IMG/VR virus record: IMGVR_UViG_2896054739_000007 | Coordinates: 1-64,000 of that record | DNA from: a virus | Taxonomy: Duplodnaviria > Caudoviricetes | DNA length: 64,000 nt | Direction: 5' to 3' (one strand) | Shown here: positions 3,654 through 49,194 of the stretch, one piece after another | How the letters are laid out: each line of letters opens with the position of its first letter | How positions within the stretch are numbered: the stretch's first letter is position 1 | Notes under the pieces: generated by a model | Database searches by the model: none | Seen by the model: only the letters and a program-made list of their open reading frames with translations | Told to the model about the DNA's origin: nothing | Position numbers and translations under genes: made by a program

Positions 3654-5572
3654 TAGACTTCACCTTTCATATCTGCATAGGAATACCATTGGCGTGTATT
3701 GAATTCTCGTTTCCGATCCTTAGAATACGACCTTACAGGTTCCAGAAAACCTACAATTCTTTGATATGTGTCCATTACACCATGTCCACATTCAGGACAA
3801 ATATCAGTTCCTACAAACCCATGATGATTGTCACATTCGTTAATTCTTGTATTAAAAGCAAAATAAATCACGCCAGACTCAGCAATTTTATTCAACATAT
3901 CCCATGCCATATCTGTATTAGGAAAATTATGCTCTAAGTTGATATGTGCGATTGCTCCACCAGAGCATTTAGTATCAAGAATAGAACTCAACCTTAACTT
4001 TTCTTGTACTGTACATTTTTCTGAAAGAGGTATCCATTGGTTAGAATAGATAAACTTATCCTTCTTCTCATATAATAAATTATCTTTCTGGCACAAAATA
4101 ACCGCTGCTCTTTCTGCTGGAACAGATTCGACATTGTAACTAAATTCATCTGTAAAATGGTCTTTTACATCATTCAAGACCTCAAAAATTTTAGATGCAA
4201 AATCAATTCCCTGTTCTGTGTAATATACATTTCCAAAATCATCTCTCTGCGTGTATCCAAATGCCTCAATAACTTCATACAATCCCAAAATGCCGCAAGT
4301 GCAATATTGCTTATCCATTTCGATGCCACCATCACAGTAGTTAGGTAATAATCCCTTTTCGACATTCCTTGAAATAATATGACGGATAACATCAAGTGAC
4401 TTGCAACACAGTTCAGTTCTTTTCCTTAATAAATTTAGATATTTCTTTTCGTTAAAATCTGTCTCATATGCAATTCTCATAAGATTAATCGTATTAACTT
4501 TGACTGAGCCAATAGATAATGCTGTACCACCAATAGAATTGATGAAACCATCAAGCTTCGATGTATCTGAGAGTAAACGACAGCAATTACTAAGAACACC
4601 AACATTGTCACTCATAAAAAAGTTGCTATCATTCCAAGTTGTGTTATGATCTGAACACCATCTTGCAAATTCTTTATCTTGAAATTCTCCATCTTTATAA
4701 AGTAATGAATATGTAAGTACAGGGAATGTAAACATATTACTGCTACGGATATCAGATACTACTTCCATGAATATTTTCTGATGTTTAATCAGTTCATCAA
4801 TATAATCAATCGCAAAACTTCCATCAGGAAATTCTACACCACCAAATAATGCTTCAAGATAATGTCTATCAAAAATTGATACATTTACAAAAGCTGACTG
4901 ATCCACTCTTAAAAATGGCTGATTCAATCTGTAAATAAATTTTTGAAATGACTGTCTGATGTAATAATCTTTATCTCGCAAGAAATATCCTTCATCACAA
5001 TCTTTCTTCCAAAAGTAGAACGTCCATAATAATACATTCGGTAAACCACACGCTCCTGAACTTCTATTACTCATAAAAGACACAAATTCGATTACATCAT
5101 CTAAGAATGTTGTTAAATGACCCGGTGATTTATTGTTGTAGTCTTCCAAGAAAAACAGGCCTTCTTTTGCAAGTCTGGTTAGATCGTAAGCGTAACAGTA
5201 GGGTTTATATGTCGCACTTGGAGCATCATGCAAATAGAACCCACCATTATATTCTGTTTCCAACCATTCTTTTGCTGTCCTTAATCCATACTTCTTTTTT
5301 AGTTCGTAGAAAATCTTATTAAATGCAAATAATTTATCTTCTGACTTTCCTTTTTCACCTAACATGCTACAAATATCTTTATGATGTGCATTTGCATTTC
5401 CATCAATAGTAACGTCTGCAACATTTTTATCTACAAATCCGTCTATAAAATCAGAAAAATTAAGTTGTGACTCATTGAAACCATTCAAAATTTCGAAATC
5501 CTCACCATATTTTGCATCAATTGTAGATAATGCTCTCTCAAAATCTTTGTTCATTTTAATAGGAATATTCAT
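3653..5572 (-). CDS. nrdD: Class III anaerobic ribonucleotide reductase
   Basis: SNCCRL, PAE, SGG, CxxH...CxxC Zn site, RIVGF glycyl-radical loop. Confidence 0.93.
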   Translation of the reverse strand: MNIPIKMNKDFERALSTIDAKYGEDFEILNGFNESQLNFSDFIDGFVDKNVADVTIDGNANAHHKDICSMLGEKGKSEDKLFAFNKIFYELKKKYGLRTAKEWLETEYNGGFYLHDAPSATYKPYCYAYDLTRLAKEGLFFLEDYNNKSPGHLTTFLDDVIEFVSFMSNRSSGACGLPNVLLWTFYFWKKDCDEGYFLRDKDYYIRQSFQKFIYRLNQPFLRVDQSAFVNVSIFDRHYLEALFGGVEFPDGSFAIDYIDELIKHQKIFMEVVSDIRSSNMFTFPVLTYSLLYKDGEFQDKEFARWCSDHNTTWNDSNFFMSDNVGVLSNCCRLLSDTSKLDGFINSIGGTALSIGSVKVNTINLMRIAYETDFNEKKYLNLLRKRTELCCKSLDVIRHIISRNVEKGLLPNYCDGGIEMDKQYCTCGILGLYEVIEAFGYTQRDDFGNVYYTEQGIDFASKIFEVLNDVKDHFTDEFSYNVESVPAERAAVILCQKDNLLYEKKDKFIYSNQWIPLSEKCTVQEKLRLSSILDTKCSGGAIAHINLEHNFPNTDMAWDMLNKIAESGVIYFAFNTRINECDNHHGFVGTDICPECGHGVMDTYQRIVGFLEPVRSYSKDRKREFNTRQWYSYADMKGEV

Positions 5573-41915: not shown

Positions 41916-42797
41916 CTATTCCTCTTTTGCAAAATTCAACATTTCATCTTTTGCTCTCTGGTAGAAATTACGGTCAATTTCAAAACCATAAGCACTTCTA
42001 CCAAGTTCATAAGCAGCTCTTAATGTAGTTCCACTTCCGCAACACGGATCAATAACTACATCACCAGGATCAGTAAATATTTCAATCAATCGTTTCAGAA
42101 CTGCTACTGGCTTCTGAGCTGGATGAATCTTAGGTATCTCTTTCCCCTTATCTTTTTCCCACATCATATATGTACTGTTGTTATAATAAGTTCTTCCCCA
42201 TTCATCTTCATTCCCACCATCAAACCAATTAAAAATCATATGTCCTGTACCTGGAATATTCTTGCCATTCTCGTCAATTTGAAGTCCATTTCTGAATTTA
42301 GGCAATTTATCTCTGTATAACAGAAGTGCATACTCAGCGGCTCCTACAACACGCATATTCGCTTTAAGCACCTGTGGACTATAATTCTTACAAAAGATCA
42401 GCGGAATGTAATGAACAAATTCATGCTTCTCTGCTGCTTTGATGAGTGTCTGAATCTGTTCAAATGAGCAAAATACAATCATACAAGGTGAATTACTGCT
42501 CCGACCTCTTGGAACGGGTCTAGTATCATCCTTTTTCAGCATCTTGGAACAAAAATGAAAATACTCATATAGATTAAAATTGAAATCAGAGTTGAACGCT
42601 GCTTTACCAGCTAATTTGCTTTCACCTTTTTTATTGTCTCCTCCGTTGTACCACATCGGATTTGAACCGTAAAAATTATTTCCTACATTATATGGAACAT
42701 CTGCAATAATTAACTGAGCAGGTGGAATTGCATACTTCTTATAATTTTGCATAGAGTCCCTATATAATTCACATTTGATTTTCTTTTGATATTCCAT
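41916..42797 (-). CDS. N4/N6 DNA methyltransferase
   Basis: IADVPY, HPAQKP, DPCCGSGT, GFEID. Confidence 0.88.
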   Translation of the reverse strand: MEYQKKIKCELYRDSMQNYKKYAIPPAQLIIADVPYNVGNNFYGSNPMWYNGGDNKKGESKLAGKAAFNSDFNFNLYEYFHFCSKMLKKDDTRPVPRGRSSNSPCMIVFCSFEQIQTLIKAAEKHEFVHYIPLIFCKNYSPQVLKANMRVVGAAEYALLLYRDKLPKFRNGLQIDENGKNIPGTGHMIFNWFDGGNEDEWGRTYYNNSTYMMWEKDKGKEIPKIHPAQKPVAVLKRLIEIFTDPGDVVIDPCCGSGTTLRAAYELGRSAYGFEIDRNFYQRAKDEMLNFAKEE

Positions 42798-43710: not shown

Positions 43711-44662
43711 CTATACAATATTTACATCACACCTTCCTTTTACACATTCCAAAATTCTATTTTTACCAATATTAAATATCTCTTCATCATTCTCAATACA
43801 AATACATTTCCTGGCTGTCCTAATAGTAGCTACGCAAGTTGTCATACTACCAGCCGTTGAATCAAGCACAGTATCGCCCTCATCAGTATAAGTTTTAATA
43901 ATTTCTTCTACTAATGCTACTGGCTTTTGAGTTGGAGTTAATGCACACTTTTGGGTATCTTTGGCGAATAGCCAAACTGACTTAGGAAATCTCTCTGTAC
44001 TGTCATATGTATGATTTTTGATTTCGTTGTAATTTGTTGACTGCTTACTATTTCTTTTGTGGGACGCTGTACTTACTTTCCTGATGTATCCACTTGTTTT
44101 CTGAGGATTATACGTTGGTTGTTTCTTATAGAAAACACACATATCCTCATGGTTTCTCATTGGCATTCTATTAGCATTCTGGAACCCTGTAGGTTGTGTT
44201 TTCTCCCAAATGAGATTGTATTTTCTCCCAAATGAGATTGTATTTCCACATCTCACGATTGCTCTCCATAAGATCAGCGGTAAACATTCCGTTTGCAAAT
44301 AGAATAATTGCGCCATTATCTTTAATAATTCTTTTATATTGAGTCCATAACCCTATAGACTTATTTTCTTCAAAATACGCAAGCGCACCATTATAATTAG
44401 TTTCTCCTTGCTTATAACACCACAAAAGAAAATCATCTTTATAAAATACCTTTGGTTTCTTTCTCACTTCTAAAGTTATATAGTCATTAAATGGAATTAC
44501 TATATCCCAAGCATTCCTGGCGGTCTGCCCAAACGGAAGATCTGTGATAATTGCATCTATAGATCTATCAGGAATATCATCCATCAGTTTTAGACAATCA
44601 CCTTGCCATAATTCATAATTATTATTCTCAAATATTTTCTTTTCCCAGAAAGGCATGATCAT
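43711..44662 (-). pseudogene. N4/N6 DNA methyltransferase frameshifted by a 22-bp tandem duplication
   Basis: GDCL, TDLPF in the 5' ORF; PTQKP, DSTAGS in the 3' ORF; TTTTCTCCCAAATGAGATTGTA twice at 44199-44242. Confidence 0.88.
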
Positions 44663-45353
44663 CTTACGGTTGCAACACCTTTGTTCCTTTCTGTGTTATT
44701 TTTCTTAAACTTCCTTGATTTTATCTGCTAACAAATTTATTAATCTTGCACCATGCGGATATAACGCATTTTCCATTACTATGTAATCTAATTGCATCAT
44801 TCCTCTACCTTGATTTTCTTCAATAATATCTGCTAATATATTGAAAAAATCTGCTTGTTGCGCTGAATCCATATTCCAGAACTCTTCAGCTAATTCCTGT
44901 GGATTCATTTCTATATTAACCTCTCTTGTTACTATTTCTTTTCACCTCCTCTTGATGAAACAGATTTTTCATGGTTATTCATTATAGTTAATTACACCAC
45001 ATTCCTTTAAAATATCCATTGCAAATTTACCGACATCTTCAAATTTACTATGCTGAGTAGAAAATTTTGCAATCTGATCTACCATGTAAATTGTTTTTGA
45101 TACCTTTACTTGATCTTTCAGTCCGCCATGTTGAGTAATAGCATAAACGATATATGCCAAATCTTCTGGATTATACTCCTTTACTTCGTACCCAAAATCT
45201 TTCAACATTTTCTTGGTCATTTTTTCATCACTCAAGACTGTTTTCACCATCTTGTCAAGCTGTTCATCTGTTATCTTATTATCTTCCATATAATTTCTCC
45301 TTTACTATTTTACACTTGACTACCTATCAGCTTTTGTATTATGTTTAATTAAC

Positions 45354-45401
45354 ATAATTTTGTTGAGTACAATATCTCTCAACTTTCAGATGCAAAATCA
45401 C
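45354..45401 (-). ncRNA. Putative guide-RNA scaffold element downstream of the Cas12f/TnpB gene
   Basis: GTGATTTT-gcatctgaaa-GTTGAG-loop-CTCAAC-AAAATTAT. Confidence 0.55.
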
Positions 45402-45423
45402 CTGATTACTTACAACAGATTTA

Positions 45424-46698
45424 TTAAACAAAATCCGTTGACATAGCAATATTTCTACTTGCATTAAAGTCTGCATTTAACTCTGCACCACAAGATTTAC
45501 ATTTAAAATGTGCCTGATCAATCCTCTGTCCCTCCTCCCAATGTCCACAACAACTACAAATCTGTGAAGTATGATATGGATTTATCTTCCTTACTTCTAT
45601 TCCATATTTGGCAGCTTTATATGTAATAAACTGTTGAAGTTCATAAAAACTCCAATTTCTTAATATAAATTGATTTGAATCAAAACCGCTTAAATCTTCT
45701 ACATTTATGTATTTTGCTTTGTTCTTAACTGCAAAATCTACAACATTTTTACTGACATAATGGTTATATGTTTTTACAAAATTTCTTTCTCTGTCTTTTA
45801 ATTTCTCTAATGGTTTTAATTTCTTTTGTCTACCGTGCCCACCAGATGTTGATGCTAGGGATTTTTGTAATCTTCTTCTCTGTGACTGTAATTGTGTTCT
45901 AATTCTTAAAAAATCATCTTTAGAACCAATAGATTGTCTTATATAATCATTTGTATTCAATCCACACATAGCAGGTATAGCAAGTCCTAAATCTACACCA
46001 ACAACTATATTTTCATCCAATTCTAGTTCTTGCTTGGGGATATCCATACTAAGATTTAAAATAATTTTCTTACCATCAATTTGAATAGAAGATCCGCACA
46101 CCTTATAGTTCTCTTCAAATATCTGCTGAATTTCGCTTCGTAAATATGCTGATTTATGTGGATTACCGAAAATCATTTTGAATGTAATATTGTTTGCAAA
46201 TTTAATAAATACTTCTAAATCTTTTGAGTACAGATGATCTAAGAAATCTGTATGTGATTCATAATTATGATACATTCCATTGTCTTGGTGATAATTTGTA
46301 CTTCGTAATCTCACAAAATTAACATGGACTAATAATGGATTATTTTTTCTATATGTTGGCAGAGAGACTTTCCCACATAGCAACCCATTTTTACATGAAT
46401 TTGCAAAGTCTTGTTTTACTTGTTTCACTACATATCCTAAATTCATATTTTTTGCAAATTCTATTGATTTATCATAAGCACTCCCTTTTTTACTATTACT
46501 TACTCTTGAATATAATCTATTTAATTCTTTTCTGTCTTCTTTAGAAATATCTTTTATTGCAGCAATGTATAACGCACTCATATATTGATTCATCGCTTTA
46601 TTCTGATAGAAAATACCATCTCTAAGATATTTATAAACCCTATCTATTTCTTCTTTTTCTCCTAATGGAATTATTTGAATTTTTCTTGTTAATATCAA
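45424..46698 (-). CDS. tnpB: Cas12f1/TnpB-family RNA-guided RuvC nuclease (about 424 aa, TTG start)
   Basis: RuvC D (GVDLG), E (INVEDLS), D (NADFNA) all intact; CSCC/CKSC Zn ribbon; GGHGR.KKL and ERNFVKTYNH resemble clostridial Cas12f1 (from memory). Confidence 0.9.
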   Translation of the reverse strand: MILTRKIQIIPLGEKEEIDRVYKYLRDGIFYQNKAMNQYMSALYIAAIKDISKEDRKELNRLYSRVSNSKKGSAYDKSIEFAKNMNLGYVVKQVKQDFANSCKNGLLCGKVSLPTYRKNNPLLVHVNFVRLRSTNYHQDNGMYHNYESHTDFLDHLYSKDLEVFIKFANNITFKMIFGNPHKSAYLRSEIQQIFEENYKVCGSSIQIDGKKIILNLSMDIPKQELELDENIVVGVDLGLAIPAMCGLNTNDYIRQSIGSKDDFLRIRTQLQSQRRRLQKSLASTSGGHGRQKKLKPLEKLKDRERNFVKTYNHYVSKNVVDFAVKNKAKYINVEDLSGFDSNQFILRNWSFYELQQFITYKAAKYGIEVRKINPYHTSQICSCCGHWEEGQRIDQAHFKCKSCGAELNADFNASRNIAMSTDFV

Positions 46699-46837
46699 TC
46701 TATTTTGCCTCCTGTTTTGTATCATAAGCAATTTTGACTTTGTATCTATATAATTTTATAAAAAATACAAAGTCCGTTACATCAAATTAGACTATAGCAA
46801 CTTTGTATCAATGCAATATTATATATATAAAATTACA

Positions 46838-46887
46838 TAGATTTTAGTGATTAGAATATATCTATCACCTTTCGGCAGCAAAATCTA
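46838..46887 (-). ncRNA. Second copy of the scaffold element, upstream of the nuclease gene
   Basis: TAGATTTT-gctgccgaaa-GGTGATAGA-loop-TCTAATCACT-AAAATCTA. Confidence 0.55.
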
Positions 46888-46958
46888 CCGTAGTTTATAC
46901 TAATTGTTGGTGGATTTTTTCCACCATTTTTCCAATAAAATCTCGAATTTATTGCTTA

Positions 46959-47870
46959 TTAATGTGACATTTTATCTGCTCTATGTAACTTCATTACTTT
47001 ATCATACAACCATTCGCCCCAAAATCGCTCATATTTTGACATTGTATCTTCTCCATGTTCTTTATCTTTTTCCCAAAAGTACGGAAACATATGTAAATTA
47101 ATCAAAATTGATACATCTAATTTATCTACACCAGACGGATATAAATAAAACAGACTGTCATATGCACCTACACAATGATGCTGATAGTAATGTGCTATAT
47201 TCGTTGTTTCTCCTTTTGAATTTACAAAAGTCTTTGTAAACGGTTTCCCACAATCATGTAAAAAACCAGCACATTCCAATAGTTTATCTTGTGCTAAAAA
47301 TGCACTTACTTTTCTACAATGTAATCCAAGAGTCATTGAATGATGTGGATTATCCTGCTCATAATTTAAATGATTATTTACCCAACATCCCATCACCTTA
47401 CGAATATCATCTTTAAATTCAATTGAAATATCATCCCACCCTTCAAACCAATAGGGTGTATTCCAATTCATATACATTCTTTTGATCACATCATATGGAA
47501 CATTTCTATCTCTTGAATCATTCCTATTACAACATTCAGCAAACGGTGTTGCCATAATAACGCACTTTTTATAACAAGGAATATTTTTTAATTCAGATAA
47601 AAATGCTCTACGCCTTTTTGAATTGATGTTGGTAGCATCATAAATAACATTTTTACCTTCTTTTAAATTCCCCTTGATTCTATCATGTAAAACTTTAAAA
47701 ACTTCTTCATTTTTATCCTGCGAATTTATATCACCACACAATTCTTTTCTAATTGTGTCTGAACTACAAATTATTGCTTCTAAATCATTTGATAATTCTT
47801 TTGCATAGGTAGATTTACCAGAGCCAGGCAAACCTACCATCATAACAAAAGTTGGTTTTGTATTATTCAT
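46959..47870 (-). CDS. Polynucleotide-kinase-like P-loop domain fused to an HD domain
   Basis: GLPGSGKST, SSD.IR, YDATN, HH...H, LHDCGKP. Confidence 0.85.
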   Translation of the reverse strand: MNNTKPTFVMMVGLPGSGKSTYAKELSNDLEAIICSSDTIRKELCGDINSQDKNEEVFKVLHDRIKGNLKEGKNVIYDATNINSKRRRAFLSELKNIPCYKKCVIMATPFAECCNRNDSRDRNVPYDVIKRMYMNWNTPYWFEGWDDISIEFKDDIRKVMGCWVNNHLNYEQDNPHHSMTLGLHCRKVSAFLAQDKLLECAGFLHDCGKPFTKTFVNSKGETTNIAHYYQHHCVGAYDSLFYLYPSGVDKLDVSILINLHMFPYFWEKDKEHGEDTMSKYERFWGEWLYDKVMKLHRADKMSH

Positions 47871-49194
47871 TTATAACTAACTCCTCTGCTTCCTCCATAT
47901 CTGGAGTATCCGCTTTATCCTTAATAATCCCTTCAAGTACCTTAAAACTGAAATTCTTATGTTTATATGCCGTAAATTTCTCTCGATTGTCAATTCTCAC
48001 TACAACTCCTTCTCTTACATGGGTCTTGCCAATCGGATCAGCACCATCATAATACTTCTCCACTCTCTCCATCAGATCTTCCCATGTAGTAAATACAAAT
48101 TTCTCAAAAGTAGGAACACACTTAATCCCTAGCTTCTCACATTCAATCTGTACCTGCTCCCAAGGAAGTTCTACAGCAAATCCATCCTCATTTGTCATAG
48201 TCATTCGATATACATAAATATCATTTTCGCCTGGTTTACACCCATATGAGAATACAGTTTCCTTACCATACTGTTTTTCAAATTCCTTATCTTTGACAAG
48301 TTTATTTGAACATCTTCCCATAATTGTCTGATCGCCTTCTGTATATCCAACAATCTCATAGAATACTTCTACACCTTTTGGAAGTTTATCTTTAAAAAAG
48401 TCCTGATATTTCTGTCTGAACGCATTACTACCATAATAGCCACCTTCATAATTTCTTAATGTGGTTCTTCTTGTCCCACTAACAACTGCAAATCGCTTAA
48501 TCTCTTTATCCCTAATTTTGAATACCTTCTTTAAAATAAAATGTCTCTTCTTTTTTACAATCTCAATAGCATTTGCAGTTCTAGCAGATGTACCATGCAT
48601 TTTAAGTGTTATGTAACAGGTATCGCCCTCTCTAAAAGCATTCTGATTATATGCAAGCTGCGCAGTATCAATATGCTCTACAAAAAATGGATAAGAAACT
48701 TTTTCCTTCTCTTCTTTCCTATTTCTATTTTTATTACCAGTGGAATTGTTTTCACATCTTCTCCGATTAGAATGCGGAATATATTTTCTACAAATTTCAT
48801 GTCCATCCAACATAGAAATCTGGTCACCATCTGATAATGTTTTTACATCTACATATTTACTTAATACTTCGATTGGCAATACAAGCCCGTCTGACTTTTC
48901 ACCTCTAAGTTTAAGAGCTGTGATATTTCTCTTATCAGGATCAAGATATCCTCCAACATTATTTCCGTTTTCGTCCTTTAAACGAACAAGATTATTATCA
49001 CATGCAAACTCTTCACTTAATTGTCCATCCACAGGGAAATAAATTACTCTCTGTCCTTCTGTATAATTCAAATCTACAATTACATTATTTCCAAAGATTG
49101 TTGCACACTGCAATCTATCAGCATTACTATGTTTTCTAAGCTGCTTAATCGTTGTTATATATCCACAATATCCATTTACTCTATTCTGTTCCAA
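47863..49194 (-). CDS. RNA ligase (DRB0094/Rnl2-like)
   Basis: HSNADRL N-terminal OB domain, TLKMHGTS adenylation motif, EGVV, YK.K. Confidence 0.82.
   Translation of the reverse strand: MEQNRVNGYCGYITTIKQLRKHSNADRLQCATIFGNNVIVDLNYTEGQRVIYFPVDGQLSEEFACDNNLVRLKDENGNNVGGYLDPDKRNITALKLRGEKSDGLVLPIEVLSKYVDVKTLSDGDQISMLDGHEICRKYIPHSNRRRCENNSTGNKNRNRKEEKEKVSYPFFVEHIDTAQLAYNQNAFREGDTCYITLKMHGTSARTANAIEIVKKKRHFILKKVFKIRDKEIKRFAVVSGTRRTTLRNYEGGYYGSNAFRQKYQDFFKDKLPKGVEVFYEIVGYTEGDQTIMGRCSNKLVKDKEFEKQYGKETVFSYGCKPGENDIYVYRMTMTNEDGFAVELPWEQVQIECEKLGIKCVPTFEKFVFTTWEDLMERVEKYYDGADPIGKTHVREGVVVRIDNREKFTAYKHKNFSFKVLEGIIKDKADTPDMEEAEELVINE

Follow-up and report, generated by a model that had tools for sequence, protein, structure and literature searches.

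The 64,000-nucleotide window analysed here (positions 1 to 64,000 of the IMG/VR virus record IMGVR_UViG_2896054739_000007) carries on its minus strand a gene, cas12f, that is predicted to encode a small RNA-guided nuclease and is flanked on both sides by homologous RNA elements. The window lies on contig C112 of its assembly, which is 190,206 bp long and has a GC content of 32.9%, compared with 42.6% for the 4.7-Mb assembly as a whole. (Numbers with C denote contigs of this assembly and numbers with L denote loci or contigs of relatives or matching phages.) Proteins encoded in the window include a phage-type DNA polymerase, a RecJ-like exonuclease, a DnaB-like helicase, a NAD ligase and NrdD, and the cassette sits in the replication and nucleotide-metabolism region of this ~190-kb phage; C112 is a large phage, or possibly a prophage, that was binned with a bacterium. 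The locus is very probably a Cas12f cassette with two fusions of an RNA scaffold to part of a repeat of the type found in clustered regularly interspaced short palindromic repeat (CRISPR) arrays. The comparisons show the protein family with its intact active site, the RNA structure (through covariation), the limits of the guides and of the cassette, and the matches in other phages; from the sequence we infer its transcription, its cleavage activity, its protospacer-adjacent motif (PAM) and its biological target.

A Cas12f gene with conserved catalytic residues

The cas12f open reading frame (ORF; 45424–46698, minus strand) runs from a TTG start at 46698 to a stop codon at 45424–45426 and encodes 424 amino acids, with a ribosome-binding site (RBS; AGGAGG, 46713–46708) 8 nt ahead of the start. 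PADLOC profiles matched the product over its full length (Cas12u3, 4.8e-120, residues 1–421; Cas12f, 2.3e-119), and Pfam assigned Cas12f1-like_TNB (3e-24), with OrfB_IS605 below its cut-off. The NCBIfam match was guided_TnpB (1.1e-52), IS200_TnpB reached 66 bits against a cut-off of 425, and the PHROG label was "transposase". The best match among solved structures was PDB 8hr5 (6.7e-89), a 497-amino-acid protein that we take to be Clostridium novyi CnCas12f1. It was followed by 9nzp (1.2e-69; the entries 9nzp, 9nzo and 9nzr span 1e-61 to 1e-69) and the AsCas12f1 entries (~1e-50). ISDra2 TnpB structures matched weakly, and LaTranC chains reached E values of 1.2e-3 to 1.7e-3, confined to the C-terminal 120 residues; the corresponding values for Cas12f chains were 1e-50 to 1e-89.

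The original prediction, made from the sequence without database searches, held that all RuvC residues are intact, and the alignment bears this out. D236, E334 and D410 and the zinc-finger cysteines C381, C384 and C400 are invariant among the window protein and ten relatives (11 sequences), and their counterparts in 8hr5 are its GVDLG, E-L and NAD motifs; the zinc finger is of the CCCC type. With all three acidic residues present, the RuvC loss that defines nuclease-dead Cas12f and TldR-type proteins is not seen here. The full-length Cas12f and V-U3 matches and the invariant catalytic columns identify the nuclease as a member of the Cas12f clade formerly called V-U3 whose active site is intact. 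Homology to the solved Cas12f structures settles its fold, and by the same homology it would work as a dimer on one long guide RNA.

The guided_TnpB match and the transposase label raise the question of whether the locus is instead an IS200/IS605 insertion sequence (IS) of the IS1341 type, in which the flanking elements would be subterminal hairpins at the termini, recognized by a TnpA acting in trans. The same-strand direct repeats at both ends would suit such an element, and tnpA (PF01797) is present on two bacterial contigs of the bin, C15 and C182. We nevertheless regard this explanation as barely credible. The protein occurs once in 4.7 Mb, and the cassette occupies an identical site in each of the 24 contigs examined, all of which share the same gene order (24/24). 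At its ends, the anti-repeat and the repeat end change in step with genuine CRISPR repeats of relatives, and the protein matches Cas12f/V-U3 profiles over its full length. The difference in GC content (32.9% versus 42.6%) suggests that the tnpA contigs belong to another replicon. A profile search of the assembly contigs found no tnpA, cas1 or cas9 on C112, in agreement with the earlier statement that no transposase is present; cas1 was found on C203, and cas9 was not found anywhere in the bin. An IS200/IS605 identity was rejected on the basis of the single copy, the lack of TnpA on the phage contig and the full-length Cas12f matches. Multiple genomic copies had been named as a result that would favour an ordinary IS, and the single protein copy and the two scaffold matches, all at this locus, do not revive that idea.

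Two tracrRNA-like scaffolds fused to part of a CRISPR repeat

The elements flanking cas12f contain a direct repeat, 28 nt long and 82% identical between them. A covariance model built from ten aligned scaffold copies (window and relatives) matched 46817–46915 at 87.8 bits and 45340–45430 at 70.1 bits and detected no third copy in the window or in the whole 4.7-Mb assembly. Folded singly, each element forms three hairpins, not a stem with a bulge. The stem of hairpin 1 is CGGTAG/CTGCCG upstream and CAGGTG/CATCTG downstream; in the ten-copy alignment it is 98% paired with compensatory changes in five of its six pairs, and hairpin 2 is 100% paired. Across 25 distinct model matches, an alignment that was fitted to the model and is thus biased towards its structure, 98% of pairs are standard and compensatory changes occur in all six pairs of hairpin 1 and in 8 of 11 pairs overall, covariation values that none of 500 shuffles reached. 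In some relatives, hairpin 1 contains insertions of 30–60 nt, forming extra hairpins, after the repeat-pairing loop bases (L013:5355–5420; L018:3185–3260 and 5320–5440).

These results sustain the original prediction of two homologous RNA scaffolds, each followed by an AT-rich hairpin and ATACAAA(A)G, with three copies of GATACAAA upstream of the gene, but not the fold that it proposed. The supposed GCnnCYGAAA bulge is really the 3' arm of hairpin 1, with its high pairing and its compensatory changes in every pair. The supposed GATTTT/AAAATY stem is only 76% paired, and its 5' half pairs instead with the 3' end of the repeat. The Rfam search suggested at that time, run over 44000–48000 with E up to 10, returned a chance match to a snoRNA as its sole result.

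The stretch that follows hairpin 2 is complementary to the middle of the CRISPR repeat, with 8–12 of 12 pairs formed across modules, which points to an anti-repeat. The final bases of the repeat are in turn complementary to the hairpin 1 loop, and loop and repeat end covary among relatives: TTTGG/CCAAA in L004 and L002, TTTGA/TCAAA in L003, L005 and L030, TTTTA/TAAAA in L012 and L018, CCTTT/AAAGG in L007, GTTCTG/CAGAAC in L013 and ATCTTA/TAAGAT in L037. When the repeat was located through its anti-repeat partner and the loop was then scored against the repeat tail, the mean longest pairing was 5.0, compared with 4.22 ± 0.12 when loops were shuffled among modules, and none of 5000 such shuffles reached 5.0. 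This pairing, together with the tracrRNA (trans-activating CRISPR RNA) architecture, identifies ATACAAA(A)G as the 3' end of a CRISPR repeat, with a guide starting directly after it. Cas12f and other small Cas12 proteins have been described with this architecture, in which several stems accompany a long repeat:anti-repeat duplex and a short pairing next to the guide. Both flanking elements thus appear to be tracrRNA-like scaffolds fused to the 3' half of a CRISPR repeat, and each transcript would be a natural single guide, with the scaffold already joined to the repeat end. The two fused units and the intact Cas12f support the proposal of a phage nuclease with two natural single guides. The guide boundaries, which the original prediction could not fix, are now placed at 46800 (spacer 1) and 45330 (downstream guide), to within ±1 nt.

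A probable decayed mini-array upstream of cas12f

All features of the upstream unit lie on the minus strand. At the left edge of the cassette is a 5' hairpin (GGTGG/CCACC, 46908–46926) whose stem is kept in L033 with another loop and which overlaps the point where homology to L106 ends (~46922); it could mark a recombination boundary or form the initial stem of the upstream scaffold. The scaffold core (46841–46902), within the 87.8-bit match, comprises a small hairpin (46902–46891), hairpin 1 (46890–46873, loop ATTTTG), the linker AAAG, hairpin 2 (46868–46847) and a further linker. The anti-repeat (46827–46840) is joined through a short AT loop to the 3' part of repeat 1 (46801–46826, ending in GATACAAAG), and the repeat 1 end pairs with the loop of hairpin 1. 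Spacer 1 (46773–46800, 28 nt), the sole spacer bounded by repeats, separates repeat 1 from repeat 2 (46738–46772), which is a full 35 nt with the palindromic ends CTTTGTAT...ATACAAAG and follows repeat 1 at a 63-nt period. Repeat 2 is a perfect partner of the anti-repeat (12 of 12 pairs, G-U allowed), which also pairs with the fused half repeat, and over 26 nt it has 96% identity with an L033 repeat; the upstream scaffold could pair with it in trans. The array ends in a 13-nt spacer remnant (46737–46725) and a 10-nt repeat-end remnant, TGATACAAAA (46724–46715), together spanning 46715–46737 and abutting the RBS. Most relatives whose array lies upstream (L003, L004, L005, L007, L018, L033 and L036) likewise have a terminal, usually degenerate repeat that continues into the RBS of cas12f.

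In L033–L035, the closest relatives with flanking sequence (86% protein identity), three repeats and two 30-nt spacers come after the same scaffold. Compared with L033, the repeat 1 region of the window lacks ~19 nt comprising the leader-repeat junction and the repeat's 5' end, and the window appears also to have lost most of the last spacer-repeat unit. We therefore describe the upstream unit, on this comparison, as a likely decayed mini-array with one true spacer; its repeats and repeat-end remnants would account for the three copies of GATACAAA. The absence of a CRISPR array, as originally stated, holds for a full array but not for a vestige, which is present here as two repeats (one of them a half) around one 28-nt spacer, plus remnants, with no exact 11-mer recurring at array spacing.

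A downstream unit resembling an omegaRNA

The downstream scaffold (45363–45438, minus strand; 70.1-bit match) begins at 45438, inside the 3' end of cas12f, and runs across the stop codon. Its parts are a hairpin over the stop codon (45438–45415), a linker, hairpin 1 (45404–45387, loop ATTTTG) and hairpin 2 (45382–45363), with compensatory differences from the upstream copy and from L033. Next comes a compact anti-repeat:repeat hairpin of 7 bp (TTATGTT, loop AATTA, AACATAA; 45331–45362, minus strand) that leads into the repeat end TACAAAAG, which stops at 45331. The guide follows directly and is shown here as 20 nt (45311–45330, minus strand).

L033 shares this compact unit; its loop has 3 nt (AAA), and in hairpin 1 a T-A pair is replaced by C-G, a compensatory change. 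L037 (82% identity) has a compact unit of its own, in which the repeat end TAAGAT matches its own hairpin 1 loop ATCTTA, and another, with structure-preserving changes, lies at L012:7651. This recurrence argues that the compact single guide is a maintained form and not a one-off deletion. In such a guide, the distal part of the repeat:anti-repeat duplex would have been cut down to a short hairpin, with CAAAG or CAAAA pairing with the hairpin 1 loop. The downstream unit would be omegaRNA-like, starting in the 3' end of the gene and taking as its guide the DNA to the right of the cassette.

Array-bearing relatives and the loss of the leader-repeat junction

Nineteen IMG/VR loci, mostly on phage contigs of 80–200 kb, encode relatives at 40–65% identity in which this scaffold leads into an array with a 66-nt period, made up of a 36-nt repeat, 30-nt spacers and additional repeats; homologous loci number roughly 1,400 in all. 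Over the wider range of 40–88% identity, relatives carry one to three units per locus in which the scaffold is fused to an array. The first repeat of these arrays starts with GTTT and is preceded by ATTTGAG or a close variant (TTGAG, ATTTGATG), a junction that was seen in L002–L020, L030 and L036 (for example, at L004:3655–3670 and L012:5498–5510). An ATTTGAG|GTTT-type sequence is the leader-repeat junction of type II-A arrays, where it is required for spacer insertion (PMC5382924). Repeats of 36 nt and spacers of 30 nt are likewise the lengths found in type II-A (Cas9) arrays. The junction and these lengths suggest that host II-A machinery may fill the arrays of the relatives, although the bin of the window has no cas9. 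Some loci carry tandem scaffold-array units downstream of cas12f, three at L013:5332–6110 (also in L014–L016) and two at L007:5291–5760. Each of these has its own repeat variant with a matching anti-repeat and hairpin 1 loop, which suggests that they are mutually distinct tracrRNA/repeat pairs serving one nuclease.

Both window units lack the ATTTGAG|GTTT junction and the 5' half of the first repeat. In seven contigs from seven sequencing runs, both intergenic regions are 100% identical, and the window guides are therefore fixed; we infer that the missing junction is the cause.

These losses bring in the possibility that the locus is a relic in decay, in which the arrays were deleted, the units still fold, the sequence that follows them is incidental and the nuclease has no current target. 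The ~19 nt deleted at the leader-repeat junction, the truncated spacer and repeat before the RBS, and the absence from both units of a junction that relatives keep exactly or in a close variant would all be expected of a relic, as would the lack of guide turnover among the seven contigs and the failure to find a target for spacer 1. We consider a relic unlikely, though it deserves serious weight, because the compact units of the window, L033 and L037 keep all their pairings through compensatory changes, the nuclease retains its catalytic residues, and the downstream guide, absent from the remainder of its own genome, matches other phages exactly.

Cassette borders and mobility

To the right of the cassette lies orf104 (44975–45289, minus strand; 104 amino acids), which is outside the cassette and marks its right flank; its homologues in L106–L111, L117 and L123 have no cas12f upstream. 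Compared with L033, which has other flanking genes, the window is homologous in the upstream scaffold, one repeat and the gene, and the homology ends at 45332. The cassette-less L111 and L123, which share orf104, are homologous to the window from 45330 on. These two borders indicate that the downstream guide is the native 5' untranslated region (UTR) of orf104 and that the cassette ends on its right side where scaffold gives way to guide, as it would with the omegaRNA of TnpB. On the left, homology to L106 (which encodes an RNA ligase, a kinase, a 200-amino-acid ORF and orf104) extends up to ~46922. The cassette spans ~1.6 kb, from roughly 46926 to 45331. An ORF of ~200 amino acids that overlaps the start of orf104 stands in place of the cassette at L106:1924–2526, L107:1900–2514 and L108:1879–2514. 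Relatives of the nuclease at 81–88% identity are found in four other gene neighbourhoods, which argues that the cassette moves among phages.

A right border of this kind invites the explanation that the cassette homes without a transposase. The locus would then be a selfish element reverted to a TnpB-like state, lacking both transposase and spacer acquisition, whose downstream RNA is a true omegaRNA that directs cleavage of cassette-free alleles (a short 5' YAYT motif plus the flank sequence, a conserved hairpin-loop site) in co-infecting relatives, with recombinational repair copying the cassette in. The coincidence of the right border with the scaffold/guide junction in three comparisons, the overlap of the RNA with the 3' end of the gene, the presence of close relatives in different neighbourhoods and the ~200-amino-acid ORF found elsewhere in place of the cassette all fit homing. 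So do the 5' flanks of the guide-matching sites (CATT, CACT and TATT), given that TATT and CATT also occur immediately to the left of the cassette, in the window and L033. However, no clean empty site with both window flanks was found, and a search of 68 phage loci with a neighbouring polynucleotide-kinase-like gene yielded none with cas12f or orf104. YAYT precedes the match in L111, L123, L124 and L125, and the left sides of these sites are not homologous to the left flank of the window. In addition, L106 homology passes the putative left motif by ~12 nt, the flank guide of L033 has no match, the cassette-free alleles L111 and L123 have a mismatch or indel in the first 12 nt, and the family otherwise uses spacer arrays. 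We thus consider homing improbable, even with its several points of agreement.

Matches to the downstream guide in related phages

Within the 190-kb contig, the first 18 nt of the downstream guide have no second occurrence, even at a tolerance of three mismatches. Outside it, the exact 20-mer is present in a 1.1-kb metagenome contig (L124), which also has a second, inverted copy matching the first 18 nt. The IMG/VR phages L125 (159 kb) and L126 (37.6 kb) match at 19 of 20 positions and share segments of 70–92% identity with the window phage. Searches of IMG/VR and GTDB genomes gave no exact match to the 20-mer; the 18-mer matched two IMG/VR phages. The L125 record (159 kb, estimated to be 92% complete) contains no Cas12f homologue. 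In a phage database, the flank guides and spacer 1 gave chance AT-rich matches only, and in their own genome they matched only themselves; the L033 flank guide had no match in IMG/VR, and none of 50,697 phage records matched the locus at the DNA level. The proposed search with the sequence 3' of each scaffold thus succeeded for the downstream guide and failed for spacer 1, and the earlier guess that one guide is directed at competing elements gains support from the matches in related phages, one of which lacks Cas12f. A recurrent guide-like "junction motif", sought with a degenerate pattern, gave a weak signal, with 12 sites in the 190-kb contig and 2–10 in shuffled sequences.

In the related phages, the guide site occupies the loop of a CTTGA-N16-TCAAG hairpin that precedes various genes. 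The junction of the cassette falls in that loop, and in the window the scaffold replaces its left half. The site is part of a conserved intergenic element (L111:2300–2430, L123:2150–2216, L124:175–310, L125:7040–7145) of which the window keeps the right half (45330–45313). In L111 the hairpin is CTTGG/CCAAG, a compensatory change. The element adjoins a tiny divergent ORF, and often a second, inverted copy lies ~90 nt off; it may be an operator, a 5'-UTR hairpin or a recombination site.

The position of both guides next to genes of the phage could instead reflect regulation, with the nuclease binding without cutting and repressing cas12f or orf104, as tracr-L does for Cas9 and as dead TnpB or Cas12f proteins do. 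The RBS follows the upstream remnant, the downstream guide is the 5' UTR of orf104, and guides in which a tracrRNA has been re-fused to a half repeat are known in regulatory dead Cas12f lineages (PMC10691335). We hold regulation to be highly improbable here, since the catalytic residues are intact, the guide is identical to its own template, where the repeat occupies the PAM position, and the 190-kb contig has no second, partly matching site; an apparent palindromic self-match is merely the two ends of repeat 2. The autoregulatory guide suggested in the original prediction is likewise unsupported. What follows the last of the upstream repeat remnants is the RBS of cas12f, which abuts a terminal repeat in most upstream-array relatives, and this sequence has no second copy in the genome.

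An explanation that takes in the whole locus is that it is a minimised type V-F Cas12f cassette with two natural single guides that cuts the DNA of rivals today, and over this explanation as a whole we are evenly divided. RNA-guided cutting would be directed at rival DNA, and the target of the downstream guide would be the conserved intergenic site of cassette-less phages. The copy carried by the phage itself would be safe, with the scaffold replacing the sequence at the PAM position. The match of the guide fits an aim at cassette-free relatives and self-protection through loss of the PAM side.

Several results weigh against this explanation. The guide match would fit equally well with common descent of a conserved intergenic element beside which the cassette inserted. 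None of the 5' flanks at the matching sites agrees with NTTR, the PAM of AsCas12f1, and a promoter scan found 14 sites where 13.2 were expected, which is chance level. Spacer 1 is unmatched in its own genome, the phage database, IMG/VR and GTDB genomes. The arrays of relatives fared no better, matching only themselves when searched against the assembly of the window and all collected loci; the arrays of two relatives against the phage database, and two L004 spacers against IMG/VR, likewise returned only self matches, and thus no spacer-target pair that would reveal a PAM. Finally, the upstream unit shows deletions, and the system may be decaying.

Comparison with known systems

The cassette resembles type V-F1 (former V-U3) Cas12f1 systems (8hr5; 9nzp, 9nzo and 9nzq; AsCas12f1 8j12 and 7wju; bioRxiv 10.1101/2023.07.03.547593) in its small effector with RuvC D/E/D residues and a zinc finger, in its long multi-stem tracrRNA with two repeat:anti-repeat pairings and a guide 3' of the repeat, and in the lack of adaptation genes in the locus. 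Unlike those systems, it is located in a phage, it has the scaffold twice and fused to a half repeat (a natural and not an engineered single guide), its array amounts to one spacer, one guide is flank DNA and the candidate flanks are not NTTR. With TnpB and the omegaRNA of IS200/IS605 elements (ISDra2; PMC10097598) it shares a long RNA from the 3' end of the gene, a scaffold that ends at the border of the unit, which makes the adjoining DNA the guide, and a nuclease of ~400 amino acids. In contrast to ISDra2-type TnpB, the phage cassette has no TnpA or multiple copies, contains a CRISPR anti-repeat:repeat hairpin, and has a second unit and array remnants upstream, and its protein groups with Cas12f.

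The nearest parallel in evolutionary path is found in nuclease-dead Cas12f relatives linked to sigma-E, in which the array has shrunk to a half repeat by the tracrRNA and become fused into an omegaRNA-like guide, and the unit has been duplicated (Altae-Tran et al. 2023, PMC10691335; PMC13472631). The phage cassette differs in that it keeps its catalytic residues, has no sigma partner and is likely to cut. In TranC systems, as described in reviews of Jin et al. (Cell 2025; for example, PMC13565253; PDB 9jfo and 9jfq), TnpB-like effectors use both CRISPR RNA and omegaRNA-like guides, and one RNA has been split into tracrRNA and CRISPR RNA. The window protein is only marginally similar to LaTranC (E ~1e-3) and belongs to the Cas12f clade. 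Miniature type V systems with mini-arrays are also encoded by phages, for example Cas12 hacker/Cas12p (bioRxiv 10.1101/2025.01.20.633832) and CasPhi, and are thought to target rival nucleic acids. These, too, are compact phage Cas12 proteins without adaptation genes, with a tracrRNA pseudoknot involving the 3' end of the repeat, but they belong to another Cas12 lineage, differ in size (500–700 amino acids for Cas12p) and have a separate tracrRNA and arrays.

What is new here is the array-less compaction and the flank-derived guide. Engineered Cas12f single guides join the tracrRNA to a trimmed repeat, and the phage appears to have made the same construct naturally, twice. The 5-nt hairpin loop, with covariation revealing which pairings are important, offers a natural design template for very short Cas12f guides. 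That a single clade, with proteins 80–88% identical, shows arrays, decayed arrays and an omegaRNA-like unit bears on the interconversion of TnpB and CRISPR RNAs. If the flank guide is functional, the cassette would be a nuclease-active example of CRISPR returning to homing or exclusion among competing phages.

Genomic context of the cassette

Directly upstream of the cassette, at 46959–49194 (minus strand), are genes for an RNA ligase (443 amino acids) and a kinase/HD protein of the polynucleotide-kinase type (303 amino acids). Such a pair is of the tRNA/RNA repair type that phages use against host anticodon nucleases. In L107, the RNA ligase, the kinase/HD protein and a phosphatase are fused into one protein of 732 amino acids. 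Just downstream of the cassette are two N6/N4 DNA methyltransferase genes (41916–42797 and 43711–44316, minus strand), and methyltransferase genes often adjoin the cassettes of relatives as well (L030, L033).

The related 159-kb record is classed as a provirus in IMG/VR. For C112 itself, the terminal 71–72 nt at both ends are identical to the ends of contigs C92, C123, C248 and C190 of the bin. These end sequences are branch points of the assembly graph, compatible with an integrated, a circular or a mis-binned phage.

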